Assembly (NCBI GenBank): GCA_963733195.1
Contig: CAVTCR010000012.1
Span: 32,001 to 96,000 of the forward strand
Length of the DNA stretch: 64,000 nt
From: an uncultured delta proteobacterium
Lineage (GTDB): Bacteria > Desulfobacterota > Binatia > Bin18
Reading direction: 5' to 3'
Below the pieces are notes generated by a model, which saw only the letters and a list, made by a program, of their open reading frames with translations, did no database searches and was not told where the DNA came from. The position numbers were made by a program, and so were the translations under genes. The number at the start of each line of letters is the position of its first letter. The first letter of the stretch is position 1. Shown one piece after another: positions 1 through 28,896 of this stretch.

Positions 1-575
1 GGGATGAATGCCGAGCACAAATTGAGAAGTTTCTCGCCACCGGACTCCATTTGGGACATATTGATGGCCATCTCAACATTCACATGCACCCCACCGTCCT
101 GGATATCCTGATTCCACTGTTGCTGGAATACAACATTCCTGCCATGCGAGTTTCGCATGAACCCCTCGCACTCAGCCTCGCGCTTGATGCTCGCTCCGGG
201 ATGCGAAAGCGGTGGGAATCGTTAATTTTTACTCGTCTTGCGCTGCGGGCGAAGAAAAAATTGCACGCTGCGAGAATTGCTTTTCCTTCTGTGCTTTTTG
301 GCCTACACCAAAGCGGAGAGATCACCGAGAGTTATCTCCTCCGCCTTATTCCTCAGCTGACAAGCGGAGTAACGGAGATCTATTGTCATCCTGCTTTCCT
401 TCCGTGCCTAGAAGTCCAACGCTGGACGCCTACCTACCGTCGCGATGTTGAACTTGACGCGTTGACGCGACGGTCAATCCGTAACGCCCTTGAAGAGCGT
501 GAAGTGAAGCTCATCAGTTATCGAGAGTTGCCACTCGTATCCGCCAATGAACGTCATGAGGCGTTGAGAGTATAG
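1..575 (+). CDS. hpnK: Hopanoid biosynthesis-associated protein HpnK (YdjC/ChbG deacetylase family), 5' end outside window
   Basis: HIDGHLNIHMHP and TEIYCHPA motifs of YdjC/HpnK; hpnI and hpnJ nearby. Confidence 0.8.
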   Translation, partial: DECRAQIEKFLATGLHLGHIDGHLNIHMHPTVLDILIPLLLEYNIPAMRVSHEPLALSLALDARSGMRKRWESLIFTRLALRAKKKLHAARIAFPSVLFGLHQSGEITESYLLRLIPQLTSGVTEIYCHPAFLPCLEVQRWTPTYRRDVELDALTRRSIRNALEEREVKLISYRELPLVSANERHEALRV

Positions 576-12753: not shown

Positions 12754-12770
12754 TCGGCACATCTCTTGCT
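12754..12770 (+). promoter_or_regulatory. sigma54 promoter of the nitrate ABC transporter operon
   Basis: TCGGCACATCTCTTGCT, GG-N10-GC. Confidence 0.75.
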
Positions 12771-12840
12771 CTCTCAGAACTGATCGCCACCATTCATAAA
12801 CTAGGGGCTGGTTCACAAGAGAAGGAGGCTGTTGTTGCGC

Positions 12841-14109
12841 ATGAAAAAACCGAAGACGCAATCACTGTCGCGTCGTCAGTTTCTACACGTCTCAGGCATG
12901 ACAGCATTGCTCGCCGGTCTGCCGACAACATGGGCCGGTCGCGTTTTTGCGTCCGATGCTCCCGAAACACCACAGATCCGCATCGGCATTATTGCACTCA
13001 CTGACTGTTCATCAATTGTGATGGCCTATGAAAAAGGCTTCTTCAAACAACACGGTCTCGATGTCACGGTATCGAAAGAGGCCTCATGGGCAGTGATTCG
13101 TGACAAACTTCAGCTTGGGGAAAATCATGCGACTCACATGCTGTACGGCATGCCGTACGCCTCAACCATGGGGCTCTTTGGTGCACCAGTCAAGCCGATG
13201 ATCATCCCATGGGCAATCAACTACAACGGCCAAGCCATCACCCTCAGTAAAGACTTGAAAGAAAAAGGCGTTCGCACTGCCGGTGATCTCAAGAAGTTGC
13301 TGGATGAAGAAAAAAGTGCGGGGAAAGAGCCTCGTACCTTCGCTATGACCTTTCCCCCAGGTACCCACGCCATGTGGATTCGCTATTGGCTCGGGTCTGG
13401 TGGGATCAATCCCGATAAGGACGTTTCGTTGATTACTATCCCTCCTCCACAAATGGTCGCCAATATGAAGGTGGGCAAGATGGACGGGTTCTGTGTGGGT
13501 GAACCGTGGAATGCGCGTGCTATCGCCGATGGGATTGGGTTTACAGCGACGACCACACAGGCGATTTGGCTGAATCATCCTGAGAAAGTGTGTGCATTTA
13601 CCGCCGAGTTTGCCGAAAAGAACCCCAGAACCGTCAAAGCCGTACTGAAAGGGCTCCATCAAGCCAGTGAATTCATTGACAAACTGGAGAATCGGCCCGA
13701 AGTTGCAGAAATCGTCTCTCGTCCTGCGTATATCAACTGTCCCAAAGAAATTATCCTCGGTCGTCTGCTGGGGAAGTATGACCACGGCGACGGTACAGGT
13801 GAGCACGAGGATAAAGACTACATGCGTTTCTTCGAGCGCGGTGTCAATTTTCCGTGGAAATCACATGGAGTGTGGTGGCTGAGTCAGTTTCGCCGCTGGG
13901 GCATGGTAAAAGGCACGCCTGATTACAAAGGCATCGTCGATAAAGTGCACCGCCCGGACATCTACCGGGAGATGGCCAAAGAGATGAGTATTGAAGCATC
14001 AGCCGAAGATTTGAAGTCGGAAAAACTCTTCGACGGCATCGCTTTCGATCCTTCCAAACCGGACGAATACGCTAAGGCGTTTACAGTGAAGAACAGTATG
14101 GAAGCGTGA
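12841..14109 (+). CDS. nrtA: Nitrate/nitrite ABC transporter substrate-binding protein (NrtA/CmpA family)
   Basis: TAT signal SRRQFL; IALTDC, TFPPGTHAMW, PPPQMVANMK and FCVGEPWN motifs. Confidence 0.9.
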   Translation: MKKPKTQSLSRRQFLHVSGMTALLAGLPTTWAGRVFASDAPETPQIRIGIIALTDCSSIVMAYEKGFFKQHGLDVTVSKEASWAVIRDKLQLGENHATHMLYGMPYASTMGLFGAPVKPMIIPWAINYNGQAITLSKDLKEKGVRTAGDLKKLLDEEKSAGKEPRTFAMTFPPGTHAMWIRYWLGSGGINPDKDVSLITIPPPQMVANMKVGKMDGFCVGEPWNARAIADGIGFTATTTQAIWLNHPEKVCAFTAEFAEKNPRTVKAVLKGLHQASEFIDKLENRPEVAEIVSRPAYINCPKEIILGRLLGKYDHGDGTGEHEDKDYMRFFERGVNFPWKSHGVWWLSQFRRWGMVKGTPDYKGIVDKVHRPDIYREMAKEMSIEASAEDLKSEKLFDGIAFDPSKPDEYAKAFTVKNSMEA

Positions 14110-14173
14110 GAAAAAGTAAGTCAGGTAGTCAGCATTCAGTAGACAGTAGAAAAACTCGGAAAAGTGAAAAGGA

Positions 14174-14956
14174 ATGACAGAGATGACACACGGACAACGA
14201 TTAAAGGCATTGGGGTTTCCTCTCATCGGGATCGCCTGTGTGGTAGCATTGTGGTCGCTGCTCAGCGCTACTGTCGCGCCCGATCTTCCCTCGCCATTGC
14301 GAAGTTGGGACGAGTCCAAGCGTTATATTCTGGACCCATTCTTCAAAGAAGGGGAAATGAATCAAGGAATTGGGAGGCTCGCCTATTACAGTCTCATCCG
14401 CGTCGCTCAAGGCTATTTCCTTGCGATTTTGATCGGGACTCCACTTGGATTTCTTCTTGGGCTGTCTCGCAATTTTACCCAGGCGTTTGATCCCCTCATC
14501 CAGATTCTCCGTCCGATTTCTCCGCTGGCATGGCTGCCACTCGGACTGATTCTCTTCCAACGCTCAGAACCCGCAGCGCTGTTCACCATCGCAGTCTGTG
14601 CCATGTGGCCGACGGTTATTAACACTGCCGTCGGTGTCCGCAATATCAATCAGGACTACTTGAACGTCGGGCGTGTGCTACGGCTCTCACGTTGGCAGAT
14701 GCTTACCAAGATCATTATACCTGCCACAGTTCCCTATCTCTTCACCGGTTATCGATTGAGCCTCGGTATCGCCTGGTTAGTGATCGTTGCCGCAGAAATG
14801 CTTACCGGGGCGGTTGGTGTCGGGGGTTTCCTCTGGCAGGAGTACAACAGCCTTGTCTACTCCCACATTATTCTCGCCATCGTCACAATTGGTTTAATCG
14901 GCTACATCCTCGATCGGCTGATGGCGATGGCCGAACTACGGTTCCAACGGGCATAA
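14174..14956 (+). CDS. nrtB: Nitrate ABC transporter permease
   Basis: LRPISPLAWLP and GIAWLVIVAAEML motifs; multiple TM segments. Confidence 0.9.
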   Translation: MTEMTHGQRLKALGFPLIGIACVVALWSLLSATVAPDLPSPLRSWDESKRYILDPFFKEGEMNQGIGRLAYYSLIRVAQGYFLAILIGTPLGFLLGLSRNFTQAFDPLIQILRPISPLAWLPLGLILFQRSEPAALFTIAVCAMWPTVINTAVGVRNINQDYLNVGRVLRLSRWQMLTKIIIPATVPYLFTGYRLSLGIAWLVIVAAEMLTGAVGVGGFLWQEYNSLVYSHIILAIVTIGLIGYILDRLMAMAELRFQRA

Positions 14957-14961
14957 GAGAC

Positions 14962-15816
14962 ATGAATTTACTTGAACTCAAAAATGTTGAGAAAAGTTTT
15001 CCTGGGCGTGAAGTTCCTGTCCTCGTAGATATCAACCTCAACATCCCGGAAGGACAGTTTACTGCAATTGTCGGATGCTCAGGCGCCGGAAAAACAACCC
15101 TAGTCTCGTTGATCGCGGGACTGACCACTCCCGACCATGGCAAGGTGATCTTCGATGGCCAACCGTCACGCGAGCCGGGGCCAGAACGCGCCATCGTCTT
15201 TCAGAATTACTCATTATTACCCTGGTTCACCGTCCTGGAGAACGTCGCTTTGGCCGTCAGCGCTGCTTCTCCTCGTTTAGGGAAGAAAGAAGTCACTGAA
15301 CAAGCGCAGTATTTTGTTGACCTGGTCAAGCTCTCTGCCGCAATGAGCAAGCGGCCACGAGAACTGTCTGGCGGCATGCGGCAACGCGTTGCGCTCGCCC
15401 GCGCTCTGGCAATGGAACCACGCATGCTGCTGCTTGATGAACCACTCAGCGCACTCGACGCGCTGACACGCGCGACGTTGCAGGATGAGTTAGCCCGGAT
15501 CTGCGGGGAAGCAAAGACTACCGTCATCATGGTCACCAATGACATCGATGAGGCCATCTTACTTGCCGATTGTGTCTATCCGTTAACTCGCGGGCCACGC
15601 GCAACCCTGGGTCACGCGATTCCTGTTGCCTTGCCACGGCCACGCACCCGTACTGGACTCAGTCTCAATCCTGAATATCAACGAGCCCGTCGGGAAATCA
15701 TTCGCTCGCTGGAAGGAACAAAAGAATACGTGGCGCCGGCTGATGCCAAGCACGAACAAACGCATCCTCTCATGGCCAGCGCCCAACCCCTCACCCCTGA
15801 CCCGCAAATTCTATGA
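14962..15816 (+). CDS. nrtC: Nitrate ABC transporter ATP-binding protein
   Basis: GCSGAGKT, VFQNYSLLPW, LSGGMRQR, LLLDEP; ATG at 14962 follows the nrtB stop. Confidence 0.85.
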   Translation: MNLLELKNVEKSFPGREVPVLVDINLNIPEGQFTAIVGCSGAGKTTLVSLIAGLTTPDHGKVIFDGQPSREPGPERAIVFQNYSLLPWFTVLENVALAVSAASPRLGKKEVTEQAQYFVDLVKLSAAMSKRPRELSGGMRQRVALARALAMEPRMLLLDEPLSALDALTRATLQDELARICGEAKTTVIMVTNDIDEAILLADCVYPLTRGPRATLGHAIPVALPRPRTRTGLSLNPEYQRARREIIRSLEGTKEYVAPADAKHEQTHPLMASAQPLTPDPQIL

Positions 15817-16703
15817 GCACCGTAATGATCGATATTTGGCAGCTCCGCAAAGTCTACGACACGCCAACCGGTCCTGCAGTAATTGTTGATGACTTCACCC
15901 TCAAAGCCAAGGAAGGTGAGTTCATCTGTGTTATTGGTCACTCTGGGTGTGGCAAATCGACGGTCCTGTCGATTGTGATGGGTCTCAACGAACCGACCTC
16001 TGGCAACGTCATCGTCGCTGGGAAAGAAGTGACTGGTCCTGGCCGAGATCGTGGTGTCGTTTTCCAATCTGCCGCCCTGCTTCCCTGGATGACGGTTCGA
16101 GATAATTTGTTGTTAGCCATCGACCAAGAAAGTACCCACGCAACAAAGAAAGAACGCGAGCAGCTTGCCGACCGGTATCTGACGCAAGTCGGGCTCGAAG
16201 GACAAGGGGAGCGGATGCCTGAAGAACTGTCTGCAGGGATGCGACAACGAGTAGGGATTGCGCGTGCCTTTGCCGTAGAACCGCGCGTGTTGTTGCTTGA
16301 TGAGCCGTTTAGTTTACTTGATGCCTTTACTCGCATGGAGTTGCAGGATCAACTCATTGACCTATGGGAGCGTACTCGCAAAACCGTGATGATGGTCACC
16401 CATGATGTTGATGAAGCGTTGCTGCTCGCTGATCGTATTGTGATGATGACAACTGGCCCTGCGGCTCGCATCGGTGGCATTCTTGAAGTGCCACTGCCAC
16501 GTCCACGCAAACGCGACCGTCTCCTCGAAGATCCAGCGTATTATCCCGCCCGCGATCAGCTCCTGACTTTTCTCGAGACTGGTGTTCCTCCAGCGCCACC
16601 TACGGACAGAAAGGATGCTAAGGATGAAGTCTCCCAGGTATCTCCTGCTCTCACTGGCCGCACTGTTCGCGACAGTCGTCTCTCCGCACCATGTCAAAGC
16701 TGA
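15813..16703 (+). CDS. nrtD: Nitrate ABC transporter ATP-binding protein
   Basis: GHSGCGKS, LSAGMRQR, LLLDEPF, THDVDEA. Confidence 0.85.
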   Translation: MSTVMIDIWQLRKVYDTPTGPAVIVDDFTLKAKEGEFICVIGHSGCGKSTVLSIVMGLNEPTSGNVIVAGKEVTGPGRDRGVVFQSAALLPWMTVRDNLLLAIDQESTHATKKEREQLADRYLTQVGLEGQGERMPEELSAGMRQRVGIARAFAVEPRVLLLDEPFSLLDAFTRMELQDQLIDLWERTRKTVMMVTHDVDEALLLADRIVMMTTGPAARIGGILEVPLPRPRKRDRLLEDPAYYPARDQLLTFLETGVPPAPPTDRKDAKDEVSQVSPALTGRTVRDSRLSAPCQS

Positions 16704-18102
16704 AGTCGCACTGCCTTCAATCTCACCAAAACTCTCTGTCAGTGGCAGTCTCCGCATCCGAACCGAGGTGTGGAACTGGTTCGATCCTAGAGGATCTTTT
16801 GACGACGGGTATGTTTTTTCCGCTTTTCTCGGGCGCGGCGCCCTGCAATGGAAAGACGACAGCTTCGACGTGATGGTCGAAGCCCAGAGTTCCTCGCTGC
16901 TGGGCTTGCCGACAAGAGCAAGTGCACCGGCACCACAGGGACTCTTGGGTCTCGGCGCGGTGTACTACGCGCATAATCGGAGTGAGGATGATTCGCATTT
17001 TTTTCTTAAGCAAGGCTTCGTTCTCTTCAAAAATTTGGGCCTGGAAGGATTTACGCTGAAAGGCGGACGTTTCGAGTTTTCCGAAGGAAACGAAATCCTG
17101 ACTAAAGAACCGACGTTGGATTGGTTAAAAAATATCCGACTTTCACAACGTCTGATCGGTCCGTTTGGTTGGTCACATGTTGGTCGTTCGTTCGATGGTG
17201 GTGTTGCCAGTCTCACCAACGGACCTTTGAATCTCACAGTGATGGCGTCTCATCCAACACAAGGCGGGTTTGATTTGCAAGGTATGAAAGAGATGGACGA
17301 AATCGATTTGCTCTACACCTCGTTCAATATTACTCGCCCATCGTTTGCCGAGAATAGCGACGCCCGTTTCTTTTATATCTATTACAAAGACGACCGTGGG
17401 TTGTTGAAATCGGACAATCGGCCACCGGCAGTGCGCCAGGCAGATACCCGCCATATCGATGTACATACCGAAGGCGGCCACATCATTTCCGTGTTCCCAA
17501 CCAGTGCTGGACCAATTGATGTACTGGCGTGGGGAGCATTGCAACAAGGTGATTGGGGAACGCTCGACCACAATGCCTGGGCATGGGATCTGGAAGTTGG
17601 GTGGCAACCGAGCATGCTGCCATGGAAGCCGTGGCTGCGTATTGGTTATGGTCGCTCATCGGGAGATGACAGCCCAGGTGACGGAGACCACGGCACGTTC
17701 TTCCAACTTCTTCCCACTGCTCGCGTTTACTCTTTCTCCACGTTCTATAACTTGATGAATAATGAAGATGGCTTTGTGCAACTGATTCTTCGTCCTATCC
17801 CTGGTCTCGTTTCCCGCACGGATTTTCACAATATTCGCGTCACCGAGGCTCGTGACCTGTGGTACCAAGGCGCAGGTGCGACGCTCTCTGATCGCAACGT
17901 CGGGTTTGGTTTTCCTGGCCGTCCAGCTTTCGGCAAACGCAATTTATTTCAAGTGATCGAGACCTCACTCAGTTATGATCTGAACAAATTTATCAATCTC
18001 AATGTCTACTACGGTCACATCTTCGGTGGAGGTATTGTCCGTTCGATTTTCGCCGGCGATCAGGCTGATTTCGGCTATGTAGAAGTGCTGTTCAAGCTGT
18101 GA
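16624..18102 (+). CDS. Outer membrane beta-barrel (alginate export/AlgE-like family), putative anion porin
   Basis: Signal peptide, GRSFDG, SSGDD.PGDGDHGTF, alternating beta-strand pattern; last gene of the nitrate uptake operon. Confidence 0.7.
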   Translation: MKSPRYLLLSLAALFATVVSPHHVKAEVALPSISPKLSVSGSLRIRTEVWNWFDPRGSFDDGYVFSAFLGRGALQWKDDSFDVMVEAQSSSLLGLPTRASAPAPQGLLGLGAVYYAHNRSEDDSHFFLKQGFVLFKNLGLEGFTLKGGRFEFSEGNEILTKEPTLDWLKNIRLSQRLIGPFGWSHVGRSFDGGVASLTNGPLNLTVMASHPTQGGFDLQGMKEMDEIDLLYTSFNITRPSFAENSDARFFYIYYKDDRGLLKSDNRPPAVRQADTRHIDVHTEGGHIISVFPTSAGPIDVLAWGALQQGDWGTLDHNAWAWDLEVGWQPSMLPWKPWLRIGYGRSSGDDSPGDGDHGTFFQLLPTARVYSFSTFYNLMNNEDGFVQLILRPIPGLVSRTDFHNIRVTEARDLWYQGAGATLSDRNVGFGFPGRPAFGKRNLFQVIETSLSYDLNKFINLNVYYGHIFGGGIVRSIFAGDQADFGYVEVLFKL

Positions 18103-18748: not shown

Positions 18749-18751
18749 GAT

Positions 18752-18774: not shown

Positions 18775-18812
18775 TATACTTACTCGTTCTTCTTTGCCTG
18801 AAATTTCACCTC

Positions 18813-18839
18813 TCAACTGTTTCTCCAACAACATCTTTC
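18813..18839. promoter_or_regulatory. Candidate upstream activator site shared with the nrtA promoter
   Basis: TCAACTGTTTCTCCAACAACATCTTTC, 19/27 identical to 12608-12634. Confidence 0.45.
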
Positions 18840-18904
18840 AATCCCACTGTAATCGGCAAGGTAAAAATCCCCTGACTTTTCCATACGAATCCGGCTCTAA
18901 GGCA

Positions 18905-18921
18905 ATGGCATAGTTCCTGCT
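18905..18921 (+). promoter_or_regulatory. sigma54 promoter of the nirB operon
   Basis: ATGGCATAGTTCCTGCT, GG-N10-GC. Confidence 0.7.
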
Positions 18922-19057
18922 CGATAGGGCTCAGAGCGTACAATGCGCTGATGCCCAAAGGGAGGAAATCCCCTCAATACTCCTCCCATTGTTCAGGAGA
19001 CGGTGTTCCCTCCACCGTCTCCTGCCCTCCTGAAAGGAGGAAAAGGAGCCGTAGGTA

Positions 19058-21568
19058 ATGTCCACTGTCCACCGCGAACGACTGGTTGTGGTTGGGAACG
19101 GCATGGCGGGCGCACGGGTTGTCGAAGAAATCCTGCAACGTGACGCGCAACGTTTCAGCATTACCATGTTCGGCGCGGAACCCTATGGCAATTATAATCG
19201 TATTCTCCTCTCCAACGTGCTGAATGGCTCTCAGAAAATGGAGGAGATCTTCCTTAATCCTCTCGCTTGGTACGAACAGAATTGCGTCACATTACATGCT
19301 GGTGTCAAAGCGACGCTGATCAATCGCTCAAAACGGGTTGTCGCCGGCAATCCTTTACGACGTGAGGCATCTCCGTATGGACTCGATGGCTGCGACCCAC
19401 ACGGGATGGCGATCGAAGAACCATACGATAAAGTCATTATTGCAACCGGCTCGCGTCCGTTCATCCCACCACTCGAAGGGATGGACAAACCAGGAACATT
19501 CCTCTTTCGCACGATCGACGACTGCGAGCAGATCGCGGAATACGCAAAAGGTTGTCGCAAAGCTGTGGTGGTAGGTGGTGGTCTGTTGGGTCTCGAAGCA
19601 GCCCGAGGCCTCCTCACCCACGGGGTCGAGGTAACGGTGATTGAAGCGCTGCCTCAGCTCATGGCCGCGCAACTCGACCCCGAATCGGGTGAGATGTTGA
19701 AGACCACGATCGAGCAGATGGGCATTCGCGTTCTTCTGGCTAAATTCTCTTCGCAGATTCTTGGCGCAGAGCGGGTCACTGGCATACAATTCAACGACGG
19801 CACAACGCTCGACACCGACATGGTCGTAGTCAGTGCGGGCATTCGCCCGATCACGGAAATTGCCAAGGATTCAGGTCTGACCGTCGAGCGCGGTATTGTC
19901 TGTGATGATCAACTTCGTACTAGCGACCCTGACATCTTTGCCGTTGGTGAATGTGTCCAGCATCGTGGAGTGATCTACGGTTTGGTCGATCCCATTTGGC
20001 AACAGGCAAAAACTATCGCCGATGTGTTAACAGGCACCGATCCACGGGCAGCATATCAGGGGTCAAAGCTCGCGACTAAACTGAAAGTGATGGGCGTTGA
20101 ACTCGCGTCGATGGGAGATGCCAAAGCTGTGCAGCCTGACGACGAGGTCGTGATCTACCGCGAACCCTCGCGTGGCGTCTACAAAAAAATGGTCATCCGC
20201 GACAACAAACTGACCAACGCAATTCTCTTAGGAGAAACCGATACGGCTGGCGTCCTAACCCAGATGTTCACGCTCGAAGCCGCAGTACCAGAACGACGTG
20301 CAGACCTCTTGTTTGGCACGTCGAGCGGTGCGCCAATCCTGTCGGTGTTCGATTTGCCGGATCAAGCGCAGATTTGTAACTGCAACGGCGTCGCCAAAGG
20401 CAAGATCAAAGACGCGATCATGATCGGCAAGTGTAAATCAGTCTCGAAAGTCGGCGTGCATACCAAGGCAGGCACCGGCTGTGGGAGTTGCAAAAGTCTG
20501 ATTCTGCAATTGTTGGAGGTCTACGCGGGCGAAGTACAAGACGATCCCAGCGAGCACTACTATGTACCGGGAGTTCCACTCACTAAGCCAGAATTGATTA
20601 CTGCTATCAAAGCGCAAAGCCTCAAGAGTGTGAGTGCGGTGTTTCGTGCACTTGCTGGTGGCAAAGAAGATCCGGGTAGTAAACCTGGACTTGCCTCGTT
20701 ACTCAAATCACTCTGGCCGCATGACTACGAAGACGAGCGTGATGCTCGCTTCATCAACGACCGCGTACACGCAAACATTCAACGCGACGCCACGTTCAGC
20801 GTCGTTCCGCGTATCTACGGTGGAGTCACCTCAGCTGCGGAACTCAAGCGCATCGCCGAAGTCGCGGAAAAATACCACGTCCCGATGGTCAAGTTTACCG
20901 GTGGTCAACGTATCGACCTGCTAGGCATCAAAAAAGAAGACTTGCCAGCAGTATGGAAGGATCTCGGTATACCAAGCGGCCACGCCTACACCAAAGCGTT
21001 TCGTACCTGCAAAAGTTGCGTTGGTACTGATTTTTGTCGCTATGGTCTAGGAGATTCTATCGGTCTCTCGCAGAAAATCGAGCGCCGTTTTCAGGGCATC
21101 GAGTCGCCACACAAGATGAAGCTCGCAACCACCGGCTGTCCGCGTAATTGCTCAGAAGCGTACGTCAAAGATCTCGGCGCGGTCGCGATCGAGGGCGGAC
21201 AATGGGAAATTTATGTTGGTGGTGCAGCCGGCAGTTCGGTACGGAAAGGCGATCTGCTGTGCACGGTCAATACGCATGATGAAGTCTTGAAGTTTATGGG
21301 GCGCTTCATGCAGTACTACCGCGAGAACGGCAAGTACCTGGAACGTAGTTACGGCTTTGTTGAACGTCTTGGAATCGAACGTTTACGTGACGTGCTTGTT
21401 GAAGATACGGAAGGAATCTGCGCACGACTCGATGCGGAGATTGAGGCCGCAGTCGCTGCCTATAAAGACCCGTGGCTGGAAGCAATCGAGCCTGTTCACG
21501 TCAGCCAGTTTGCTGATCCTGTTCCCGTCGCTGCAACAACCAGCCAGTCACAAGAGACGCTTTCATGA
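19058..21568 (+). CDS. nirB: NAD(P)H-dependent assimilatory nitrite reductase large subunit
   Basis: VGNGMAG, GGGLLGLE, BFD-like ICNCN...GTGCGSC, siroheme/FeS motifs CKSCVG..FC and GCPRNC. Confidence 0.95.
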   Translation: MSTVHRERLVVVGNGMAGARVVEEILQRDAQRFSITMFGAEPYGNYNRILLSNVLNGSQKMEEIFLNPLAWYEQNCVTLHAGVKATLINRSKRVVAGNPLRREASPYGLDGCDPHGMAIEEPYDKVIIATGSRPFIPPLEGMDKPGTFLFRTIDDCEQIAEYAKGCRKAVVVGGGLLGLEAARGLLTHGVEVTVIEALPQLMAAQLDPESGEMLKTTIEQMGIRVLLAKFSSQILGAERVTGIQFNDGTTLDTDMVVVSAGIRPITEIAKDSGLTVERGIVCDDQLRTSDPDIFAVGECVQHRGVIYGLVDPIWQQAKTIADVLTGTDPRAAYQGSKLATKLKVMGVELASMGDAKAVQPDDEVVIYREPSRGVYKKMVIRDNKLTNAILLGETDTAGVLTQMFTLEAAVPERRADLLFGTSSGAPILSVFDLPDQAQICNCNGVAKGKIKDAIMIGKCKSVSKVGVHTKAGTGCGSCKSLILQLLEVYAGEVQDDPSEHYYVPGVPLTKPELITAIKAQSLKSVSAVFRALAGGKEDPGSKPGLASLLKSLWPHDYEDERDARFINDRVHANIQRDATFSVVPRIYGGVTSAAELKRIAEVAEKYHVPMVKFTGGQRIDLLGIKKEDLPAVWKDLGIPSGHAYTKAFRTCKSCVGTDFCRYGLGDSIGLSQKIERRFQGIESPHKMKLATTGCPRNCSEAYVKDLGAVAIEGGQWEIYVGGAAGSSVRKGDLLCTVNTHDEVLKFMGRFMQYYRENGKYLERSYGFVERLGIERLRDVLVEDTEGICARLDAEIEAAVAAYKDPWLEAIEPVHVSQFADPVPVAATTSQSQETLS

Positions 21569-21933
21569 GTCTGCATACCCTTCAGAGAAGTGGAGGGCAA
21601 GCCATGGCCCTACAGCAACCTTCTCCAAAACGATTAGTAAATCTCGGTTCAGTAGACTTCATTCCGCTTGGCGAAGGGCGCGCATATAAGGTCGGAGACG
21701 TAGGCATCGCAGTCTTTCGTCAACGTGACGGAAAACTGTTCGCGACTCAAAGTCAATGCCCGCATCGTCAAGGGCCTTTGGCTGACGGCATTGTTGGTGC
21801 AGGAACAGTGATTTGCCCGTTTCACGCCTGGAAGTTTGACCTCGCGACCGGTCGTTGTGCTGGGGAAGAAGTCACGTTGCTCACGTTTCCAGTCCACGAA
21901 CTCGAAGGTCGCCTCATCATTGAAATCGAGTAA
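21565..21933 (+). CDS. nirD: Nitrite reductase small subunit (Rieske ferredoxin)
   Basis: CPHRQGPLADG...CPFH; overlaps the nirB stop. Confidence 0.85.
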   Translation: MSLHTLQRSGGQAMALQQPSPKRLVNLGSVDFIPLGEGRAYKVGDVGIAVFRQRDGKLFATQSQCPHRQGPLADGIVGAGTVICPFHAWKFDLATGRCAGEEVTLLTFPVHELEGRLIIEIE

Positions 21934-21942
21934 CTCGCAACT

Positions 21943-23172
21943 ATGAATCTACAAAAATCCGCGACTGCTATCGTGTCAATATTGGCCCTCGACCGCACCG
22001 CCGCCACTGCCGCACTAGTGGCCGGTGGACTCGTCACCCTTTTCATCATTATCGGCTCGCAAGGACTCAGACATTTCGACTGGATGCTACTTCACTACGC
22101 ATTAGCAACCGTGTTTGCCATCGCCGCCAGCACCTACCGTATCGTGCTGTGGATACGGCGTCCGCCCACGCTCCGTTATTGGCAGCAAAACTGGCGGCTG
22201 TTTCGCAGCGGTGGAATTATACAGAACAGTATCTATCTCGGTCAGTTGCTGTTCAACAATGTTGGCACCCAGAAATTCATCGCGCAACGTAGCCGCTATC
22301 GTTGGTTTACGCACCTGTGCCTGTCCTGGGGTGGCATGCTGGCTTTTGCCATTACCTTCCCCTTGGTGTTCGGTTGGGTGCATTTCGAGACCCCGCCCGA
22401 CGATCTGGAAAAGTATCATGTCGTGTTCCTAGGTATGCACGTACAAGAGTTCTCGATCCACTCGCTCATCGCGTTTGTCACTTTCAATGCGCTCAACATC
22501 TCCGCCATTATCATGCTGATTGGCGTTTCGATGGCACTCTACCGCCGCCTAACTGATGGCGGAGCCATTGCGTTGCAACGCTTCAGCAATGACATCCTGC
22601 CACTCCTCCTGCTTTTCGTCGTCGCCGCCAGTGGATTAGGACTCACGATTAGTGCGCATTTCATGAATGGACGAGGGTTCCCTTTTATCGCTGCCACCCA
22701 CGCCGCATCAGTCATCATTCTTCTGCTCTCGTTACCGTTCGGTAAGTTGTTTCACATTTTTCAGCGTCCTGCCCATATCGGCGTTGGCTTCTACAAGCGT
22801 GCGGGACAAATGGGGCAGCAGGCTCACTGCGGACGTTGTGGCGAGGCGTTCGCCTCACAAATACATGTCGATGACCTCAAGCAAGTGTTCGCTGAACTCG
22901 GCATGGATTCTCACTTAGACGGTCCGGTAACGCATTATCAAGAGATTTGTCCTCCCTGTCGCCGTCGATTATTAGCGCTCAACCAAGGCAAGACGATGTC
23001 AGGGCTGAAGAATCAATGGACAGGGATAGAGGCGTTGGTGAACCACGAGTTAGAAGCTGAATGGGAGAATGGGCGAACGGGTGATTCGGCGCAAGAAATT
23101 TCGTCTCCTTCCTTCGCCCACTCGCTCAGTCGCCCAGTCGCCCAGTCTCGGGTGGATATTCCAGCAACATAA
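21943..23172 (+). CDS. Polytopic membrane protein, NarI/DsrM-like b-type cytochrome with C-terminal 4-Cys module
   Basis: RWFTH in one helix; H-x17-H ending in PFGKLFH (compare NarI H187/H205); CGRC...CPPC. Confidence 0.6.
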   Translation: MNLQKSATAIVSILALDRTAATAALVAGGLVTLFIIIGSQGLRHFDWMLLHYALATVFAIAASTYRIVLWIRRPPTLRYWQQNWRLFRSGGIIQNSIYLGQLLFNNVGTQKFIAQRSRYRWFTHLCLSWGGMLAFAITFPLVFGWVHFETPPDDLEKYHVVFLGMHVQEFSIHSLIAFVTFNALNISAIIMLIGVSMALYRRLTDGGAIALQRFSNDILPLLLLFVVAASGLGLTISAHFMNGRGFPFIAATHAASVIILLLSLPFGKLFHIFQRPAHIGVGFYKRAGQMGQQAHCGRCGEAFASQIHVDDLKQVFAELGMDSHLDGPVTHYQEICPPCRRRLLALNQGKTMSGLKNQWTGIEALVNHELEAEWENGRTGDSAQEISSPSFAHSLSRPVAQSRVDIPAT

Positions 23173-23188
23173 GAGGGAAATACAGACG

Positions 23189-25413
23189 ATGGCACTGCTC
23201 CCATTCCCAGAAGAAACGTCATCGACCGTTACGGTCCGCATTTAAACTACGAACCTGCTGGCGGTTGGCAAACCAGTGGAGCGCCAGATCGTTTAGTCAA
23301 AACACATTGTTGCTTTTGCGGCGTGCAGTGTGGCATCCAACTCAAAGTACGTGATGAAAAAGTTGTTGGCTTCGAGCCGTGGACGGATTTTCCGGTGAAC
23401 CAGGGTAAGCTCTGCCCTAAGGGAGTGAAGCGGTATTTACAGAACAATCACCCAGACCGCATTCTTGCGCCCTTGATTCGGACCAACGATGGCTTCCGCG
23501 AGGCGGATTGGAACGAAGCGCTGACGCAGGTGACCGAGAACATTCGCCGTATTCAGCAGACCTACGGTAAAGATGCGTTTGCGCTCCTCGGTGGTGCCTC
23601 ACTTACGAATGAGAAAGCCTATCTGATGGGCAAATTTGCTCGGGTGGCACTGGGCACAGCCAATATCGATTACAACGGTCGCCTGTGTATGGTCTCGGCT
23701 GGGGCAGGCAACAAGATGGCATTCGGCATCGACCGTGCCGCTAATCCCTGGAGCGATATTCCCCTCGCCAAATGCATTATTGTCACTGGCAGTAACATTG
23801 GTGAGTGCTTTCCGATTCTTACGGATTATTTATGGCGGGCACGTGACAACGGTGCCAAACTCATTGTTATTGATCCACGCATAACACCGATTGCGCGTAC
23901 GGCGGATCTGTTTTTGCCAGTGCGACCTGGTCGGGATAGCGCCCTCATGAACGGCATCTTGCATGTAATGATCGAGCGCGACTGGATCGACCATGAATTT
24001 ATCGCTGCACACACGCTCGATTTCGAGAAGGTCCGTGAAGCTGTCGCAACCTACACACCCCAATACACCGCCGAGATTACTGGTGTACCAGCGGTAAATA
24101 TTATAAAAGCCGCGGAACTGTGGGGTGAAGCGCCGACCTCGATGTTGTTACACGCACGCGGTATCGAGCACCACACCAAAGGGGTCGAGAACGTTCTCTC
24201 TTGTATCAACTTGGTGTTGGCAACCGGGCGTATTGGTCGTCCTGGTTGTGGATACGGCACCATCACGGGTCAAGGCAATGGTCAAGGTGGACGCGAGCAC
24301 GGGCAACGTTGCAATCAGCTTCCCGGCGGACGCGACATCGAAAACCCACAGCATCGACAAGAGATCGCCTCGTTTTGGGGGATTCAGGAGCAGGAGCTTC
24401 CACTAAAGGGACTCACCGCAGTCGAGCTATTTGACGCGATCAACGAAGGGAAGATCAAAGGGTTGCTCTCGATCTCTTTTAACCCAATGGTGTCGTTACC
24501 CAACGCTGCCTTAACCCGGTCAGCCTTAGAGAAGCTCGAGTTCTACGCTGCGATTGAACCATTCATGTCGGAGACTGCACGACATGCCAATGTCGTCCTC
24601 GCTGGCTCACTTCAGGAAGAAGATGAAGGAACTGTCACTAATGGTGAAGGACGCGTAATCCGCTTACGACAGTCGGTCAAACCGCCAGCCAATGCTCGGG
24701 TAGATTGGCAGATTATTGTTGAGATCGCGCAACGCTTAGGGAAAGGCGAATTCTTTCCGTATACCCAAGCTGAAGATATGTTCCGTGAACTGAGTCATGC
24801 TTCGGCTGGTGCGCCAATTGACTATGCAGGTATTACCTACAAGCGTATCGAAGAGAACAAAGGCGTCTTTTGGCCTTGTCCAACACCGGAACATCCCGGT
24901 ACTCCGCGTTTATTTGAAGGTGGGAAATTCGCACATCCAGATGGCAAGGCACGCTTCCATGCCATTCAGTACCGTCCACCGGCGGAGGATATCGACACCA
25001 ACTATCCACTGTTCATGACCAGCGGACGTGTGGTGTCACAGTACTTGAGTGGTACACAAACGCGACGGATTGGTCCGCTCGTAGACCAGTATCCCAATCC
25101 GCAGGTCGAGATGCATCCCCAGCTCGCGCAGAAACTCGGAGTGAAATCCGGCGACCAAGTCCGGGTTGAAAGCCGTCGCGGTGAATTAACGTTACCCGCA
25201 CTGGTAGTGAAGACAATTCGCCCAGATACGATCTTTATTCCTTATCACTGGCCGGGCAAGCAATCGGCAAATCTTGTCACTAATCGAGTCCTGGATCCCG
25301 TTTCTAAGATTCCTGAGTTTAAAGTGTGTGCAGTCCGAGTGAGCAAGATCGGTACAATACCATCCTCTCCTCTCAATGGCAGCGGTCACCACTTGGAAAG
25401 AAATAACCTATGA
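23189..25413 (+). CDS. nasA: Molybdopterin assimilatory nitrate reductase catalytic subunit (Nas/Nap clade), frameshift near 23210
   Basis: [11 protein letters not shown]...LCPKG FeS motif, GRLCMVSA (Mo-ligand Cys), [21 protein letters not shown]; no TAT signal. Confidence 0.85.
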
Positions 25414-25997
25414 GCATGGAATTCTTTGTTGACCCATCACGCTGTATTGGCTGTCAAGCGTGTTTCCATGCTTGCGCGGAGTGTGAAAGTCATCGTGGCA
25501 TTTCGATGATCCACCTCGACTTTGTTGACCGCTCCAGTTCTCCACAAACCACACCAACTGTATGCATGCACTGTGAAGATCCAACGTGCGCACGCGTATG
25601 TCCTGCTGATGCGATCAAACAAACCGCAGAAGGTATCGTGCAATCAGCGCTCAAGCCACGCTGCATCGGTTGCTCGAACTGTGTGTTGTCCTGCCCCTTT
25701 GGGGTGCCGCGCTACATGCCAGCGCAAGATCAGATGATGAAGTGCGACATGTGTTACGATCGCACTTCAGTAGGATTAACCCCTATGTGCGCCACAGTCT
25801 GTCCAAGTGGTGCATTATACTACGGCCCTCGCGAGACGGTTGTGCAGACGCGGCGCGAAACATCTACTAACACCTTCGTGTTTGGCCGTCGGGTCGTGAA
25901 GACTAAAGTGAGCATGATGGTCGGACAAGAAGCCGAAGCATTGGATATCGATGTTGCCAGCTTTATGGAGGGGTCTGGGCTAGGAACTGGGAGTTAG
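25410..25997 (+). CDS. 4x[4Fe-4S] electron transfer subunit (DmsB/NrfC-like)
   Basis: [18 protein letters not shown]...CP, CIGCSNC...CP, CDMC...C...CP. Confidence 0.9.
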
Positions 25998-26025
25998 GAT
26001 TTGGGATTTAGCAAGGAAAAAGCCA

Positions 26026-26574
26026 ATGGATGCAAACTATCACGCTATGTCACCTTCCGTCTCACACAGCACAGAAAACCAATCCCCAATCCCCAATCCC
26101 CAATCTGCTGCCTTCCCCATCCCGTGGGAAGAAGAGCAGACCGTGACACGTCGGACTTTTCTGTCGTTTGTGTTGCTGCTCTCAACCACCCTTCTCGCAA
26201 GTACTGGTCTCCTTGGTCTCGTCGATTGGTTGCGCCGCAGGTCAGTTTCTCAGCTTGCGCCTGCGCTGATCGCATCGGTCCAGGATGTTCCGGTCGGCGG
26301 TGTAAAGCTGTTTTCCTATCCGACTGCTCATGATCCTTGTCTGCTCATTCGTCTCTCACAAGACCAGTTTGTCGCCTACAGCCAGAAGTGCACCCATCTA
26401 TCCTGCCCGGTCACCTACAAAGCACAAGAGAAAGAATTTTTCTGTCCGTGTCACGCTGGGCGTTTTGCGTTAGAGGATGGGCGCGTGCTTGGAGGTCCAC
26501 CGCAACGGCCACTCCCGAGCATTCTCCTCAACATCTCTGGTAACGAGATTTGGGCGACTGGAGTACGAGTATGA
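26026..26574 (+). CDS. Membrane-anchored Rieske [2Fe-2S] protein (QcrA/AioB-like)
   Basis: TRRTFL twin-arginine motif plus TM helix; CTHLSC and CPCH boxes; GPPQRPL. Confidence 0.85.
   Translation: MDANYHAMSPSVSHSTENQSPIPNPQSAAFPIPWEEEQTVTRRTFLSFVLLLSTTLLASTGLLGLVDWLRRRSVSQLAPALIASVQDVPVGGVKLFSYPTAHDPCLLIRLSQDQFVAYSQKCTHLSCPVTYKAQEKEFFCPCHAGRFALEDGRVLGGPPQRPLPSILLNISGNEIWATGVRV
26079..26105. repeat. Heptamer tandem repeat (CCCCAAT)n in frame within the Rieske N-terminus
   Basis: CCAATCCCCAATCCCCAATCCCCAATC; complementary G-rich heptamers at 25970-26010. Confidence 0.7.
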
Positions 26575-26810
26575 ACACTCTTCCAACGACGGCACACCAG
26601 CAACGGAACACTATTTTTTCCTTGGTCGCATTCTCGATGATCGTTTTGTTCAGTCTCCAGCTCTGGCTCTTTATCGAAGTCCTTCACGGGTCGTTAGGTA
26701 GTGAAGGAGGATATTCTTTACTGGCAACACTAGTTTCGGTCCTCTGTGTCGCTGGCAATTGGCAATTGTGGCATCTTCTTCATAGTAGAATTGACAACTT
26801 CAGCCGATAA
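26571..26810 (+). CDS. Small two-TM membrane protein (DUF6755-like)
   Basis: ATGA overlap with the Rieske gene; LQLWL motif; two hydrophobic helices. Confidence 0.65.
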   Translation: MNTLPTTAHQQRNTIFSLVAFSMIVLFSLQLWLFIEVLHGSLGSEGGYSLLATLVSVLCVAGNWQLWHLLHSRIDNFSR

Positions 26811-26840
26811 ACAAGGAAAGCCTGCTATTGAGGAGTAAAC

Positions 26841-27083
26841 ATGCAAAAGACCGCCTTCCAACCCGAACATATTGTTGATCAGGTCAAGACTTTTTTTAAC
26901 GGCGTCCACGATATGTCTGATTTCTACTACCGTATGTATATGCTGAGTGGTCTGTGTCGCACCTGTGACGGTCGCGGGTATGTAAATAACGCGGAAGAAC
27001 CATGCCCGACGTGCCACTCCAGTGGCAGCAGTGACGTCTGGCGCAATGCGGCATTGGCAAAGCAGAACGAACCACACCGATAA
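26841..27083 (+). CDS. Small protein with a DnaJ-type CxxCxGxG zinc finger
   Basis: GAGGAG RBS; CRTCDGRG...CPTCHSSG. Confidence 0.6.
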   Translation: MQKTAFQPEHIVDQVKTFFNGVHDMSDFYYRMYMLSGLCRTCDGRGYVNNAEEPCPTCHSSGSSDVWRNAALAKQNEPHR

Positions 27084-27120
27084 ATGGGCAGAGAAAGGGG
27101 AGGAGTTAGCAGTGTCTTTC

Positions 27121-27312
27121 ATGCAGAATGATTGTGATTCGGAGGAAGTTACGGCTGATGCACGGATCCCACTTCGTGAGGCACAAAAGAAACAGCCCGA
27201 GCAGCTGTGGTGGACAGTACTAGATGATCCGTCGTTTCGTCGGCTGCTTCGAGATGGACATCGTGCCGACGCAACTGCATACCTTCTTACCCAGCTAGAG
27301 AAGGAAGAATGA
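27121..27312 (+). CDS. Small protein resembling the CysG/SirC dimerisation helices
   Basis: GGAGG upstream; WWTVLDDPSFRRLLRDGHRADATAYL; ATGA overlap with cobA. Confidence 0.45.
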   Translation: MQNDCDSEEVTADARIPLREAQKKQPEQLWWTVLDDPSFRRLLRDGHRADATAYLLTQLEKEE

Positions 27313-28145
27313 CATATTCACCGGTGTACTTGGTCGGGGCTGGGCCAGGCGATCCAGGGCTCATTACCGTTCGTGGACTGAACGCCGTACGACAAGCGAC
27401 AGTCGTTATATATGATCGTTTGGTTCACCCCTCTCTCGTAGAAGAAGCACCACCCACTGCACAGCGCATCTATGTCGGGAAAGAGTCTGGAATTCACTGT
27501 GTCCCACAAGCGCAGATCAACCAGCTCTTAGTGAAATACGCAGGGCAAGGAGAGCGGGTAGTCCGCCTCAAAGGCGGCGATCCGTTTGTCTTTGGCCGTG
27601 GTGGAGAAGAGGCTGAGGCTTTGGTTGCTATGGGAATCCCTTTCGAGATTATCCCTGGTGTCAGTTCTGCAGTCGCTGTCCCTGCGTATGCAGGCATTCC
27701 AGTCACCCATCGCAAAGTTGCCTCGTCGTTCGCTGTGATCACCGGCCACGAGGAAGGGAGCAAGGAACATACTGCGATTGATTGGCAGCGCCTCGCAACT
27801 TCCGTAGATACTCTTGTCATTCTTATGGGAACAAAAGGGCTGGGACGGATTACGGCGCAGTTGATACAGCATGGTCGCCCCCCAGAGACACCAGTAGCAC
27901 TCATCCGTTGGGGAACAATGAGTGAACAGTTCACCGTAATTGGTACACTCGTAGATATTGTCGATAAAGCTGCAGCAGTTGGCCTAGAGCCACCAGCAGT
28001 CACAGTAGTCGGAGATGTCGTCAATCTCGCCGAGCGGTTGCGTGGTTTTTCCCTCAGGCGCTGCCTTCTTCCTTATCTGTCATCCCTGATGACACGGGGT
28101 TCCTCAATTCGACCGTCAAGGGTTGGCATCTGTGGTTTGATTTAG
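27309..28145 (+). CDS. cobA: Uroporphyrinogen-III C-methyltransferase (siroheme synthesis)
   Basis: VYLVGAGPGDPGLIT, RLKGGDPFVFGRGGEE, PGVSS, GIPVTHR; the C-terminal tail may be frameshifted. Confidence 0.92.
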   Translation: MTYSPVYLVGAGPGDPGLITVRGLNAVRQATVVIYDRLVHPSLVEEAPPTAQRIYVGKESGIHCVPQAQINQLLVKYAGQGERVVRLKGGDPFVFGRGGEEAEALVAMGIPFEIIPGVSSAVAVPAYAGIPVTHRKVASSFAVITGHEEGSKEHTAIDWQRLATSVDTLVILMGTKGLGRITAQLIQHGRPPETPVALIRWGTMSEQFTVIGTLVDIVDKAAAVGLEPPAVTVVGDVVNLAERLRGFSLRRCLLPYLSSLMTRGSSIRPSRVGICGLI

Positions 28146-28174
28146 TCCAACTACACCTTTGCTGTGACAAGAAG

Positions 28175-28896
28175 TCACTTGCGGTGTGCCACAATCAACT
28201 GCGCAATACCACCGGAGAGTTGATGACGGACACCTGCTGAAATCCAGCCTGCTCAATTATCACAGCAAAATCCTTCGGGTTCGGAAGATAGGAAACTGAA
28301 CGCGGCAAGTAGGCATACGCTTGACTATCTGAAAGCAGGGCACCGAGGAACGGTACAACTCGATTAAAATAAAACTGATGCCCCCAACGTAAGACCGGGT
28401 TCGCTGGGGTATCGACTTCTAGCAGAGCCAATCTCCCGCCCGGCTTCAATATGCGTGCAGCTTCGGCCAGCACCGTTGGAATCGATACAAAGTTACGCAA
28501 GGCAAAACCAGAAAGTACAACGGTTACCGAAGTGTCTGGTAGCGGAATACAACCCGCATCGGCTTGTACGAACATTGCGTTGATTCCTCGTCGTCGTGCG
28601 CCGGCAAGCATATTCCCGGCAAAATCAACTCCTACAACTCGCGCTCCCGAGTGCGCTGCAAGTTCACTAAGGTCGCCAGTACCACACGCAAGGTCAACGA
28701 CAACATCCTGTGCAGTCACTGCTGCCGCCTGAATCGTCTTGCGTCGCCATGATTGATCAAGTTGGAAGGAAAAGAGGCGGTTAAGAGTATCGTACCGTGG
28801 GGCGATGCGGTCGAACATGGTTCGTACATATACGGCCTTTTCACTTTGTTCAGGAAGTATCTTCTCTAATTGCGGATTAACCATTTCACTCATCAT
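28175..28896 (-). CDS. ubiE: UbiE/MenG family C-methyltransferase, frameshift near 28228
   Basis: MFDRIAPRYD.LN, DLACGTGD, GFALRN, AYAYLPRSV; tail LSGGIAQL in an alternative frame ending at 28175. Confidence 0.8.

Follow-up and report, generated by a model that had tools for sequence, protein, structure and literature searches.

A candidate membrane-bound, quinol-fed NasC-type nitrate reductase encoded by a five-gene module in a nitrate assimilation operon of an uncultured Binatia bacterium

In a stretch of 64,000 nucleotides (nt) from an uncultured delta proteobacterium of the Binatia (contig CAVTCR010000012.1, positions 32,001 to 96,000 of the forward strand; hereafter, the window), five co-directional genes on the forward strand (21943-26810 in window numbering) lie directly 3′ of nirBD. 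They encode a NarI-like membrane protein with a tail of four conserved cysteines (Mem; the tail, Cys4), a NasC-like molybdenum catalytic subunit (Mo), an electron-transfer subunit with four [4Fe-4S] clusters (FeS), a Rieske [2Fe-2S] protein and a small membrane protein of the DUF6755 family. This module is a real, widespread and apparently unstudied variant of membrane-bound nitrate reductase. The reading we prefer, with a probability of roughly 0.55, is that the five genes specify a single membrane-bound, cytoplasm-facing, quinol-fed nitrate reductase complex of the NasC type, which would serve assimilation in this organism.

In the complex that we propose, Mo and FeS would reside in the cytoplasm, docked on the cytoplasmic face of Mem near its inner haem and the Cys4 tail. 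Electrons from the membrane quinol pool would pass from the outer to the inner haem of Mem and then, perhaps by way of the Cys4 tail, through the four [4Fe-4S] clusters of FeS and the [4Fe-4S] cluster of the Mo subunit to the Mo centre, where imported nitrate would be reduced to nitrite in the cytoplasm; the neighbouring NirBD would carry the nitrite on to ammonium. The Rieske protein, anchored by one helix and with its cluster domain outside, would probably sit at or near the quinol-oxidising site together with DUF6755, and could be either part of the quinol site or the exit for one of the two electrons. Quinol as the donor is suggested by the sequence comparisons laid out below, and haem binding and the contacts between the subunits are likewise predicted.

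The tight coupling of five genes after nirBD, proposed in a sequence-only reading of this DNA, is plain from the coordinates (Table 1). Mem starts 9 nt after the end of nirD, 16 nt separate the Mem stop from the Mo ATG (23189), Mo and FeS share 4 nt (25410-25413), the Rieske gene begins 28 nt after FeS, and the Rieske and DUF6755 genes likewise share 4 nt (26571-26574). Every motif quoted in that reading occurs in the translations, and it was right that no separate flavin adenine dinucleotide (FAD) diaphorase is encoded nearby: in a Pfam scan of 8 to 36 kb of the window, only NirB itself matched. Promoter and terminator scans of 18000-28400 returned counts at chance level.

The genes co-occur across genomes. 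A scan of one genome per species found the Mem module in genomes of no fewer than 578 species from many phyla (at least 600 pattern matches, 578 confirmed), and we analysed the best 80 of these confirmed loci, which come from Acidobacteriota, Verrucomicrobiota, Chloroflexota, Planctomycetota, Gemmatimonadota, Armatimonadota, Actinomycetota, Dormibacterota and Melainabacteria, among others. Mo follows Mem in all 80 loci; FeS was reached in 64 and the Rieske gene in 61, with the order Mem-Mo-FeS-Rieske kept in 60 of the 61. The permuted locus (L025, of the Chthonomonas type) carries FeS, Rieske and DUF6755 genes upstream of Mem, and about 1.2 kb lie between its Mem and Mo genes. Sixteen loci gave no FeS match: 14 of them end inside or just after the Mo gene, and in the two others, L006 and L009 (Chthonomonas type, relatives of L025), downstream DNA is present without FeS. 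Among the 60 loci with enough DNA, an open reading frame (ORF) like DUF6755 comes next after the Rieske gene in 56; in L008 it lies at a greater distance, and L003, L004 and L005 gave none. A complex iron-sulfur molybdoenzyme layout (catalytic subunit, four-cluster subunit and anchor) is encoded together and co-inherited. More than 3194 database proteins of similar length belong to the Mem family; the names that they carry, if any, are "MFS transporter", "hypothetical" or "nitrate reductase gamma subunit".

In the Mo subunit, Pfam recognises the domains Molybdopterin, Molydop_binding and Fe4S4. The best of 28 NCBIfam families for it is NasC (NF047855) at 841.1 bits, under the equivalog cut-off of 1100; the next are Fdh-alpha (630 bits), haloarchaeal NasA (404), NapA (294) and AioA (166). 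It fits the feature set of the NasC type, i.e., domains for the molybdenum bis-pyranopterin guanine dinucleotide cofactor (Mo-bisPGD), an N-terminal [4Fe-4S] Cys motif, a Cys-Met pair and no twin-arginine translocation (Tat) signal. In the translation, the N-terminal Cys motif runs into ...CPKG and the ligand motif reads GRLCMVS. Among 69 Mo homologues, NGRLCMVS is found in 67, and NGRLCMVS/A, with the nitrate reductase-like Cys-Met, in 68; the FS0 Cys motif is present in 67, and the twin-arginine (RR) motif of Tat signals is missing, likewise, from 67. The Mo gene scored 25 bits with the narG model (TIGR01580; cut-off 1084) and 165.8 bits with that of AioA (TIGR02693; cut-off 359), so that neither cut-off was reached. 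A Cys-Met at the ligand position is the nitrate reductase-like state, and Cys or selenocysteine followed by His is that of formate dehydrogenases. We rejected a formate dehydrogenase on the strength of the Cys-Met motif and the surrounding nitrate genes; solved formate dehydrogenases score best against Mo because no Nas structure turned up. What had been described as a Nas-clade molybdenum enzyme without a Tat signal is borne out as to family and as to the missing signal, with the correction that the gene is frameshifted as assembled (see below).

In FeS, 16 Cys are arranged in four groups, and all 16 are invariant in 29 FeS sequences. Its NCBIfam matches are four-cluster subunits of the FdnH, DmsB, HybA and NrfC types (63-101 bits), and the narH model (TIGR01660), at 36 bits against a cut-off of 524, was not reached. 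The window protein has no signal peptide and neither a transmembrane (TM) helix nor a hydrophobic segment.

The translated Rieske protein has a conserved N-terminal tail and the motif TRRTFLSF, continues with one hydrophobic helix (residues 48-66) and then shows CTHLSC and CPCHAGRF. The RR pair, the (S/T)RRxFxKF motif and the CxHxxC and CPCH boxes are invariant in 30 of 30 homologues, and the boxes include both of the extra Cys that are typical of bc- and Aio-type Rieske proteins. Models of the bc1, AioB and b6f Rieske proteins matched with 46-56 bits, that of AioB (TIGR02694) at 49.7 bits without reaching its cut-off of 95.7, and the best solved relative is AioB (1g8j_B; E 5.9e-13, nearly the whole domain covered). 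We found no fused form among the best 150 of 7757 Rieske matches, almost all of which are 79-250 aa long; the lone match of 393 aa has no recognisable N-terminal domain. The last ORF of the module reached the gathering cut-off of DUF6755 (PF20540) with 35.1 against 27 bits.

Mem is the subunit for which the family models say least. Pfam Nitrate_red_gam (PF02665) scored 17.3 bits against a gathering cut-off of 22.9, and the NarI model TIGR00351 17.2 against 105.6, neither being reached; the other weak NCBIfam matches were QmoC, TcuB and HyfH, which, with NarI, all fall between 17 and 23 bits. In precomputed Pfam annotation, among 120 near homologues listed, PF02665 is assigned to one and PF27541 to two. 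When Mem was compared with solved chains by HMMER, E. coli NarI was the sole match (E 0.03), and in the local alignment the helix-V haem ligands of NarI, H187 and H205, are matched by H253 and H271 of Mem, respectively. The same register was obtained with hhalign against the canonical NarI domain of locus L043 (E 2.5e-4, probability 43%). The helix-II region of NarI did not align with Mem by sequence. The structure model of Mem is of moderate confidence, with a predicted local distance difference test score (pLDDT) of 74. A Foldseek search with it gave nothing at E ≤ 0.001; G-protein-coupled receptors were ranked highest, and NarI came 26th and 38th (E about 0.3). By VIA-align, mycobacterial EtfD (9ojn_A) came first (Z 11.4, root-mean-square deviation 5.0, 235 residues aligned) and E. 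coli NarI (1q16_C) fourth (Z 10.2, deviation 5.3, 187 of 224 residues, 19% identity), Z values of 10-11 being in a range common for helical bundles by arrangement alone. The earlier description of Mem as NarI-like is supported by the helix-V His pair; its scores stay below the NarI family cut-offs.

The residues in question are those that the family has kept. The Mem translation contains RWFTH (H124), the spacing H253-x17-H271 with PFGKLFH, and C296xxC299...C336xxC339. Both H253 and H271 are conserved in 81 of 81 Mem sequences, as is the set of four Cys in the tail, and H124 is kept in all 80 homologues that have a residue at that position. His occupies both position 147 and position 182 in 46 sequences, position 147 alone in 15 (the window included) and position 182 alone in 16; three homologues have His at neither and one further sequence ends early (n = 81), so that 77 of 80 have at least one. 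The motifs of Mem, as those of FeS and the Rieske protein, are more than chance, being conserved across homologues. We infer one inner haem, held by H124 and H271, and one outer haem, held by H253 together with H147 or H182. Residues 146-171 form a beta-hairpin insert in the model, which is conserved and lies outside the NarI stretches aligned by sequence. The Cys4 tail, modelled alone, gave a confident fold (pLDDT 83.5) similar to a portion of HycF, which is a ferredoxin-like subunit of formate hydrogenlyase with two clusters (Foldseek probability 0.99, template modelling score 0.67, E 0.1; VIA-align Z 6.1 with 59 of 67 residues aligned, the runner-up at 3.9); zinc, iron or a cluster would be its candidate ligand.

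The orientation of these proteins in the membrane can be predicted from gene fusions. Database proteins of at least 717 aa that match Mem number 1091, and all 120 of those listed have a domain of the major facilitator superfamily (MFS), several being named NarK or NNP transporters. One such protein (P0131) has the counterpart of Mem residues 18-348 at its positions 408-737, after the transporter part. Likewise, in 32 of 80 loci no stop interrupts the frame over at least 400 codons upstream of Mem, NarK being fused in frame to the Mem N-terminus there. MFS transporters end in the cytoplasm. Because Mem is fused behind such a transporter, its N-terminus should be inside, which, with six helices, would bring the Cys4 tail as well as H124 and H271 to the inner face, and the hairpin (146-171), H147/H182 and H253 to the outer face. 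The name "MFS transporter" for Mem itself comes from fusion with, or adjacency to, NarK, and we rejected it. The Mo protein of the window has no hydrophobic segment; the lack of a Tat motif, together with NarK adjacency and the NarK-Mem fusions, supports a cytoplasmic active site. The cluster domain of the Rieske protein is probably exported to the outer face, and its placement on the membrane's opposite face in the sequence-only reading agrees with the invariant Tat motif, the bc/Aio-type boxes and the topology drawn from the fusions.

Table 1. Features of the module and its surroundings (positions in the window).
Feature	Position	Strand	Characteristics or basis
Mem, NarI-like membrane protein with Cys4 tail	21943..23172	+	409 aa, six hydrophobic segments
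Mo, NasC-like Mo-bisPGD catalytic subunit	23189..25413	+	Pfam domains; NCBIfam NasC best family
FeS, 4x[4Fe-4S] electron-transfer subunit of the DmsB/FdnH/NrfC kind	25410..25997	+	16 Cys
Rieske [2Fe-2S] protein with conserved N-tail, twin-arginine motif and one TM helix	26026..26574	+	bc/Aio-type cluster boxes
DUF6755 small membrane protein	26571..26810	+	79 aa from ATG at 26571; Pfam
nirB, NAD(P)H nitrite reductase	19058-21568	+	Pfam
nirD	21565-21933	+	Pfam; Rieske-type protein
Sigma-54-like -24/-12 site	12755-12770	+	62 nt before nrtA
nrtA, nrtB, two ABC ATPases, outer-membrane porin gene	within 12755..18102	+	Pfam
Outer-membrane porin gene, alginate-export family	16582-18102	+	Pfam
Uroporphyrinogen-III methyltransferase (cobA; sirohaem branch), downstream	27309..28145	+	Pfam TP_methylase 182 bits

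The module is embedded here in a run of genes for nitrate assimilation. The order begins with an ammonium transporter, a GAF histidine kinase and a sigma-54 response regulator (ntrBC-like), followed by the sigma-54-like site, and goes on with nrtA, nrtB, two ATP-binding cassette (ABC) ATPases, the porin, a split bacterioferritin, nirB, nirD, the module, a zinc-finger ORF and cobA. A search for sigma-54 sites found 2 matches in the window against 2.84 expected by chance, and the site before nrtA is suggestive by its position alone. The porin gene stands at the same place in locus L001 and in four of five relatives' loci (L111-L114), and because it is kept at this operon position, it may encode a nitrate/nitrite-specific porin. 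The zinc-finger ORF (26841-27083, 80 aa), between DUF6755 and cobA, has a DnaJ-type CxxCxGxG motif (23 bits, under the Pfam cut-off), and a treble-clef zinc-finger ORF occurs at the same place in L043. A gene for a UbiE/MenG-type quinone methyltransferase adjoins the operon on the opposite strand (28195-28896, minus).

In this genome, which is 93% complete, nothing scored over the cut-offs for NarG, NapA or NarI, and the next most similar Mo enzyme is 39% identical. On account of the operon context and the lack of NarG and NapA, a role of the enzyme in nitrate assimilation is supported for this genome. Mem is present in 11 of 31 related genomes (the window's own included) and in 8 of the 18 that belong to the same family; the order nirB-nirD-(NarK)-Mem-Mo-FeS-Rieske was found in all five of the relatives' loci that were fetched, which range from the same genus to the same class. 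In a quick maximum-likelihood tree of 65 module Mo subunits and one distant outgroup, the root of which is unsure, the NirBD-linked rows (the window, L001, L005, L012, L004 and L060, with L003 grouped among them) are set off from the other 58 by a branch with a Shimodaira-Hasegawa-like approximate likelihood ratio (SH-aLRT) support of 99. The NirBD-linked loci appear, on this well-supported branch, to form a distinct subgroup of the module.

The company of the module in other lineages is of another kind. A NarK-family transporter is adjacent in 47 of the 53 loci with at least 15 kb of sequence (214-226 bits against TIGR00886, cut-off 311.7). In these 53 loci, the other neighbours include NirB (4), NirD (5), Crp/Fnr-type regulators (13), NnrS (10), hemerythrin (9) and SLAC1/TehA-type channels (5); neighbour families were also assigned by Pfam on 76 flanking ORFs of 12 loci. 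Because the module lies mostly beside NarK and not nirBD in other lineages, the type as such is not specifically assimilatory, and its company there is often more dissimilatory-looking. In many of these lineages, the module seems to stand by itself, and its use may be in respiration or in balancing the redox state. The assimilatory role claimed by the sequence-only reading, thus, holds for this genome with its operon and its lack of NarG and NapA, and not as a general trait, most lineages being NarK-linked without nirBD.

The Mo gene requires a closer look. Its frame is open from 23173, and the first ATG, GTG or TTG in it is the GTG at 23323, inside the CxxCxxxC motif; the ATG at 23189 belongs to a different frame from the body of the gene and meets a stop (23243-23245) after 18 codons. 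Homologues start some 45 residues before the Cys motif with a conserved M-A-x-L-P...YGP-x-L-x-Y segment. In a genome of the same genus (G002), an additional base some 30 nt past the Mo ATG gives a single frame throughout, and the one-base gap in the window gene was placed near 23212-23220. Two related soil contigs begin to match at 23219, and their unmatched letters upstream are in frame from an ATG. Among public sequencing runs, none had more than 0.32 of the sampled words, and in the four runs that were examined no contig extended across 23215-23218. A contig from an RNA library covers 23064-23214, i.e., the Mem stop and the Mo start, with 3 differences; it is no proof of transcription.

The window has two more genes with this kind of split. 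The bacterioferritin-like gene between the porin gene and nirB is present as ORFs 18274-18537 and 18467-18748 in different frames, which match Pfam Ferritin at positions 2-67 and 64-136, respectively, and a CP_ATPgrasp gene on the minus strand is present as ORFs 30884-31681 and 31542-32375, matching profile positions 1-147 and 148-374. Because of these two, we hold the frameshift in Mo to be very probably an indel error of the assembly rather than a real mutation. Were it real, the module would be a decaying pseudogene cluster in this strain, a reading that starts from the gene being one base short against both G002 and the soil contigs; we consider it unlikely, as the bodies of all five ORFs are otherwise intact and the similarly split bacterioferritin and CP_ATPgrasp genes point to assembly indels.

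Several observations weigh against a quinol-fed, cytoplasm-facing complex. As assembled, the Mo gene is frameshifted, and the enzyme would be dead in this strain if that state were real. The case for haem and quinol is built on weak matches (Pfam NarI 17.3 against 22.9 bits; hhalign probability 43%), the Z of 10-11 for the Mem fold is within the range of helical bundles by arrangement alone, and 3 of 80 Mem homologues lack His at both 147 and 182. As for the quinone of the organism, the models for MenD, MqnA/D (PF02621) and UbiG found nothing over cut-off in this genome (93% complete). The adjacent NirB and NirD could feed NasC from NADH, as in Paracoccus. Finally, AioB, the closest solved relative of the Rieske protein, binds its own Mo subunit and carries it across the membrane, which would fit a periplasmic enzyme too.

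There are three other ways in which the module could work. In one of them, quinol electrons would be split: the Rieske cluster and the outer haem of the NarI-fold Mem would share a Qo-like outer site, unrelated to the cytochrome b of bc1, from which the high-potential electron would go via Rieske to a periplasmic acceptor and the low-potential electron via the haems and FeS to a NasC-type centre for which quinol itself would not be reducing enough. A Tat-type, bc/Aio-like Rieske strictly kept beside a two-haem membrane protein would suit such a scheme, as would the conserved outer-face hairpin of Mem (146-171) outside the NarI-aligned stretches, and cyanobacterial NarB works at potentials well under quinol couples. 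We regard splitting as quite improbable, however, given that no gene for a cytochrome c, a cupredoxin or another acceptor occurs in the conserved module or in this operon, and that nitrate/nitrite is a high-potential couple, for which there is no evident thermodynamic need of it. The enzyme could instead be fed by NADH as in Paracoccus, where NirB and NirD, taken as NasB- and NasG-like, would supply the NasC-like subunit and the membrane proteins would be a tether or serve another purpose. That 59 of the 65 Mo tree rows are modules lacking a NirB (>50% identity), 58 of them beyond the branch with SH-aLRT 99, and that FeS and the conserved His and Cys of Mem are always kept even there, makes this highly doubtful, a four-cluster subunit and a two-haem protein being a costly tether; speaking for it are the position of nirBD directly upstream, 9 nt from Mem, the Rieske-type nature of NirD, and the precedent itself, as given in passages of Heylen and Keltjens 2012 (PMC3475470).

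Were the enzyme periplasmic, the Tat signal of the Rieske protein would export Mo and FeS, as AioB does AioA, nitrate would be reduced outside, and the nitrite would be imported by NarK or NrtABCD for NirBD. AioB is, as said, the best solved relative of the Rieske protein over nearly the whole domain (E 5.9e-13) and the Tat motif is invariant; moreover, the Nas and Aio catalytic subunits are related lineages according to passages in Wells et al. 2020 (PMC7331816). Against this stand the fusion of NarK to Mem in 32 of 80 loci, the predicted cytoplasmic exposure of the Cys4 tail and the inner His pair, the score of Mo on the AioA model (166 bits, cut-off 359) and the ATP-driven nitrate importer in the same operon. 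A two-haem transmembrane wire would also be needless for an outer-face reductase with outer-face quinol oxidation, and we find a periplasmic enzyme quite improbable on balance. The quinol-fed, cytoplasm-facing complex remains our preferred reading, and it can be set against the systems that are already known.

Its closest functional analogue would be NarGHI of E. coli (PDB 1Q16), with which the module shares its layout (a Mo subunit that would face the cytoplasm, an FeS subunit with four clusters, and a membrane subunit of NarI-like fold with two putative haems), the helix-V His pair (Mem H253 and H271) and a NarK neighbour. The parts, however, are unrelated or distantly related ones: Mo belongs to the Cys-ligated Nas/Nap/Fdh clade and not with the Asp-ligated NarG (narG model 25 bits), and FeS is DmsB/FdnH-like rather than NarH (36 against 524 bits). 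Mem has an extra N-terminal helix, judged from its segment count and the range of the fold match (43..294) and from the helix count of NarI, as well as the Cys4 tail. The module adds the Rieske and DUF6755 proteins, sits in an assimilation operon, and no narJ-like gene was noticed in it. It would work like NarGHI, yet it scores under every Nar membership cut-off.

The resemblance to NasC and NarB (Bacillus NasBC, Paracoccus NasBGC, cyanobacterial NarB) is in the catalytic subunit, for which NasC is the best family (841 bits), and extends to the missing Tat signal and to nirBD and nitrate-uptake genes as neighbours. Unlike these, the module scores under the equivalog cut-off of 1100, and its partners are a four-cluster protein, a cytochrome-b-like protein and a membrane Rieske instead of a FAD diaphorase, NasG or ferredoxin. 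According to passages of Wells et al. 2020 (PMC7331816), the clade of Nas, Aio, Nap and cytoplasmic Fdh never goes with canonical four-cluster or membrane-anchor subunits. AioAB combines a Mo subunit of a related lineage with a Tat-signal Rieske, AioB, the closest solved relative of the module Rieske; the module, however, scores far under the AioA and AioB cut-offs (166 against 359 and 50 against 96 bits), and Aio, which has neither a four-cluster subunit nor a cytochrome b, is periplasmic and oxidises its substrate.

A nitrate reductase cluster with an outward Rieske (NarB) and a two-haem protein (NarC), proposed as a quinol oxidiser, is described for the haloarchaeal pNar system in parts of PMC7754194; according to the same text, its NarGH is outward-facing and of the NarG type, unlike Mo, its NarC is no homologue of NarI, and its NarB did not co-purify with NarGH. 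The NarI-fold anchors EtfD (PDB 9OJN), HdrE, DsrM and QmoC resemble Mem in that their b haems link the quinone pool to a cytoplasmic Fe-S module, EtfD being the top fold match and QmoC and TcuB weak NCBIfam matches of Mem. In contrast to them, the Mem tail has four Cys only, is HycF-like and has no CCG domains, and the partner is a molybdoenzyme. Mem differs from the cytochrome b of bc1 and b6f complexes in that a Pfam scan gave no match to that family (PF00033), whereas the Rieske protein is like theirs in its Tat motif and CxHxxC/CPCH boxes. A further pairing of NarI fold and Rieske occurs upstream of the module in L043, from an Obscuribacterales metagenome-assembled genome (L043:2702-5217), where a 472-aa protein joins a NarI domain (198 bits) to a C-terminal Rieske and is followed by a cytochrome b/b6 gene.

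Part of this gene arrangement has been in print for some time. In passages of Heylen and Keltjens 2012 (PMC3475470), nasC of Bacillus bataviensis (729 aa) is linked to genes for an iron-sulfur and a Rieske protein, the same linkage is noted in other species, and an alternative assimilatory system is proposed; the passages on this linkage make no mention of a membrane subunit. The menaquinone-linked formate dehydrogenase of Bacillus subtilis, as presented in parts of PMC8808070, ties the same clade to the quinone pool by unusual partners. Our literature search, most subscription journals being outside its reach, found no biochemical or genetic study of the full module. The statement of the sequence-only reading that no characterisation is known, thus, stands for biochemistry, and not for the nasC-FeS-Rieske linkage, which was published in 2012.

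The textbook division is between membrane-bound respiratory Nar, periplasmic Nap and soluble assimilatory Nas. The module departs from it, with a Nas-type subunit that appears to be wired like Nar and supplemented by an outward Rieske. This design is encoded in hundreds of species of phyla that dominate soils, e.g., Acidobacteriota, Verrucomicrobiota, Chloroflexota, Planctomycetota and Gemmatimonadota, and gene surveys score its Mo subunit as ordinary nasA/narB and label its anchor "MFS transporter". What the window adds is the clearest assimilatory context for the module, in an nrt-nirBD-cobA operon whose make-up holds throughout a class-level lineage. If the enzyme is quinol-fed, the first step of nitrate assimilation would be free of NAD(P)H cost and may conserve energy, the Rieske partner would pose a new bioenergetic question, and counts of "assimilatory" versus "dissimilatory" nitrate reduction in soils would need another look. 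If quinol electrons were split, the quinol pool could pay for nitrate assimilation, with no NAD(P)H or ferredoxin consumed.

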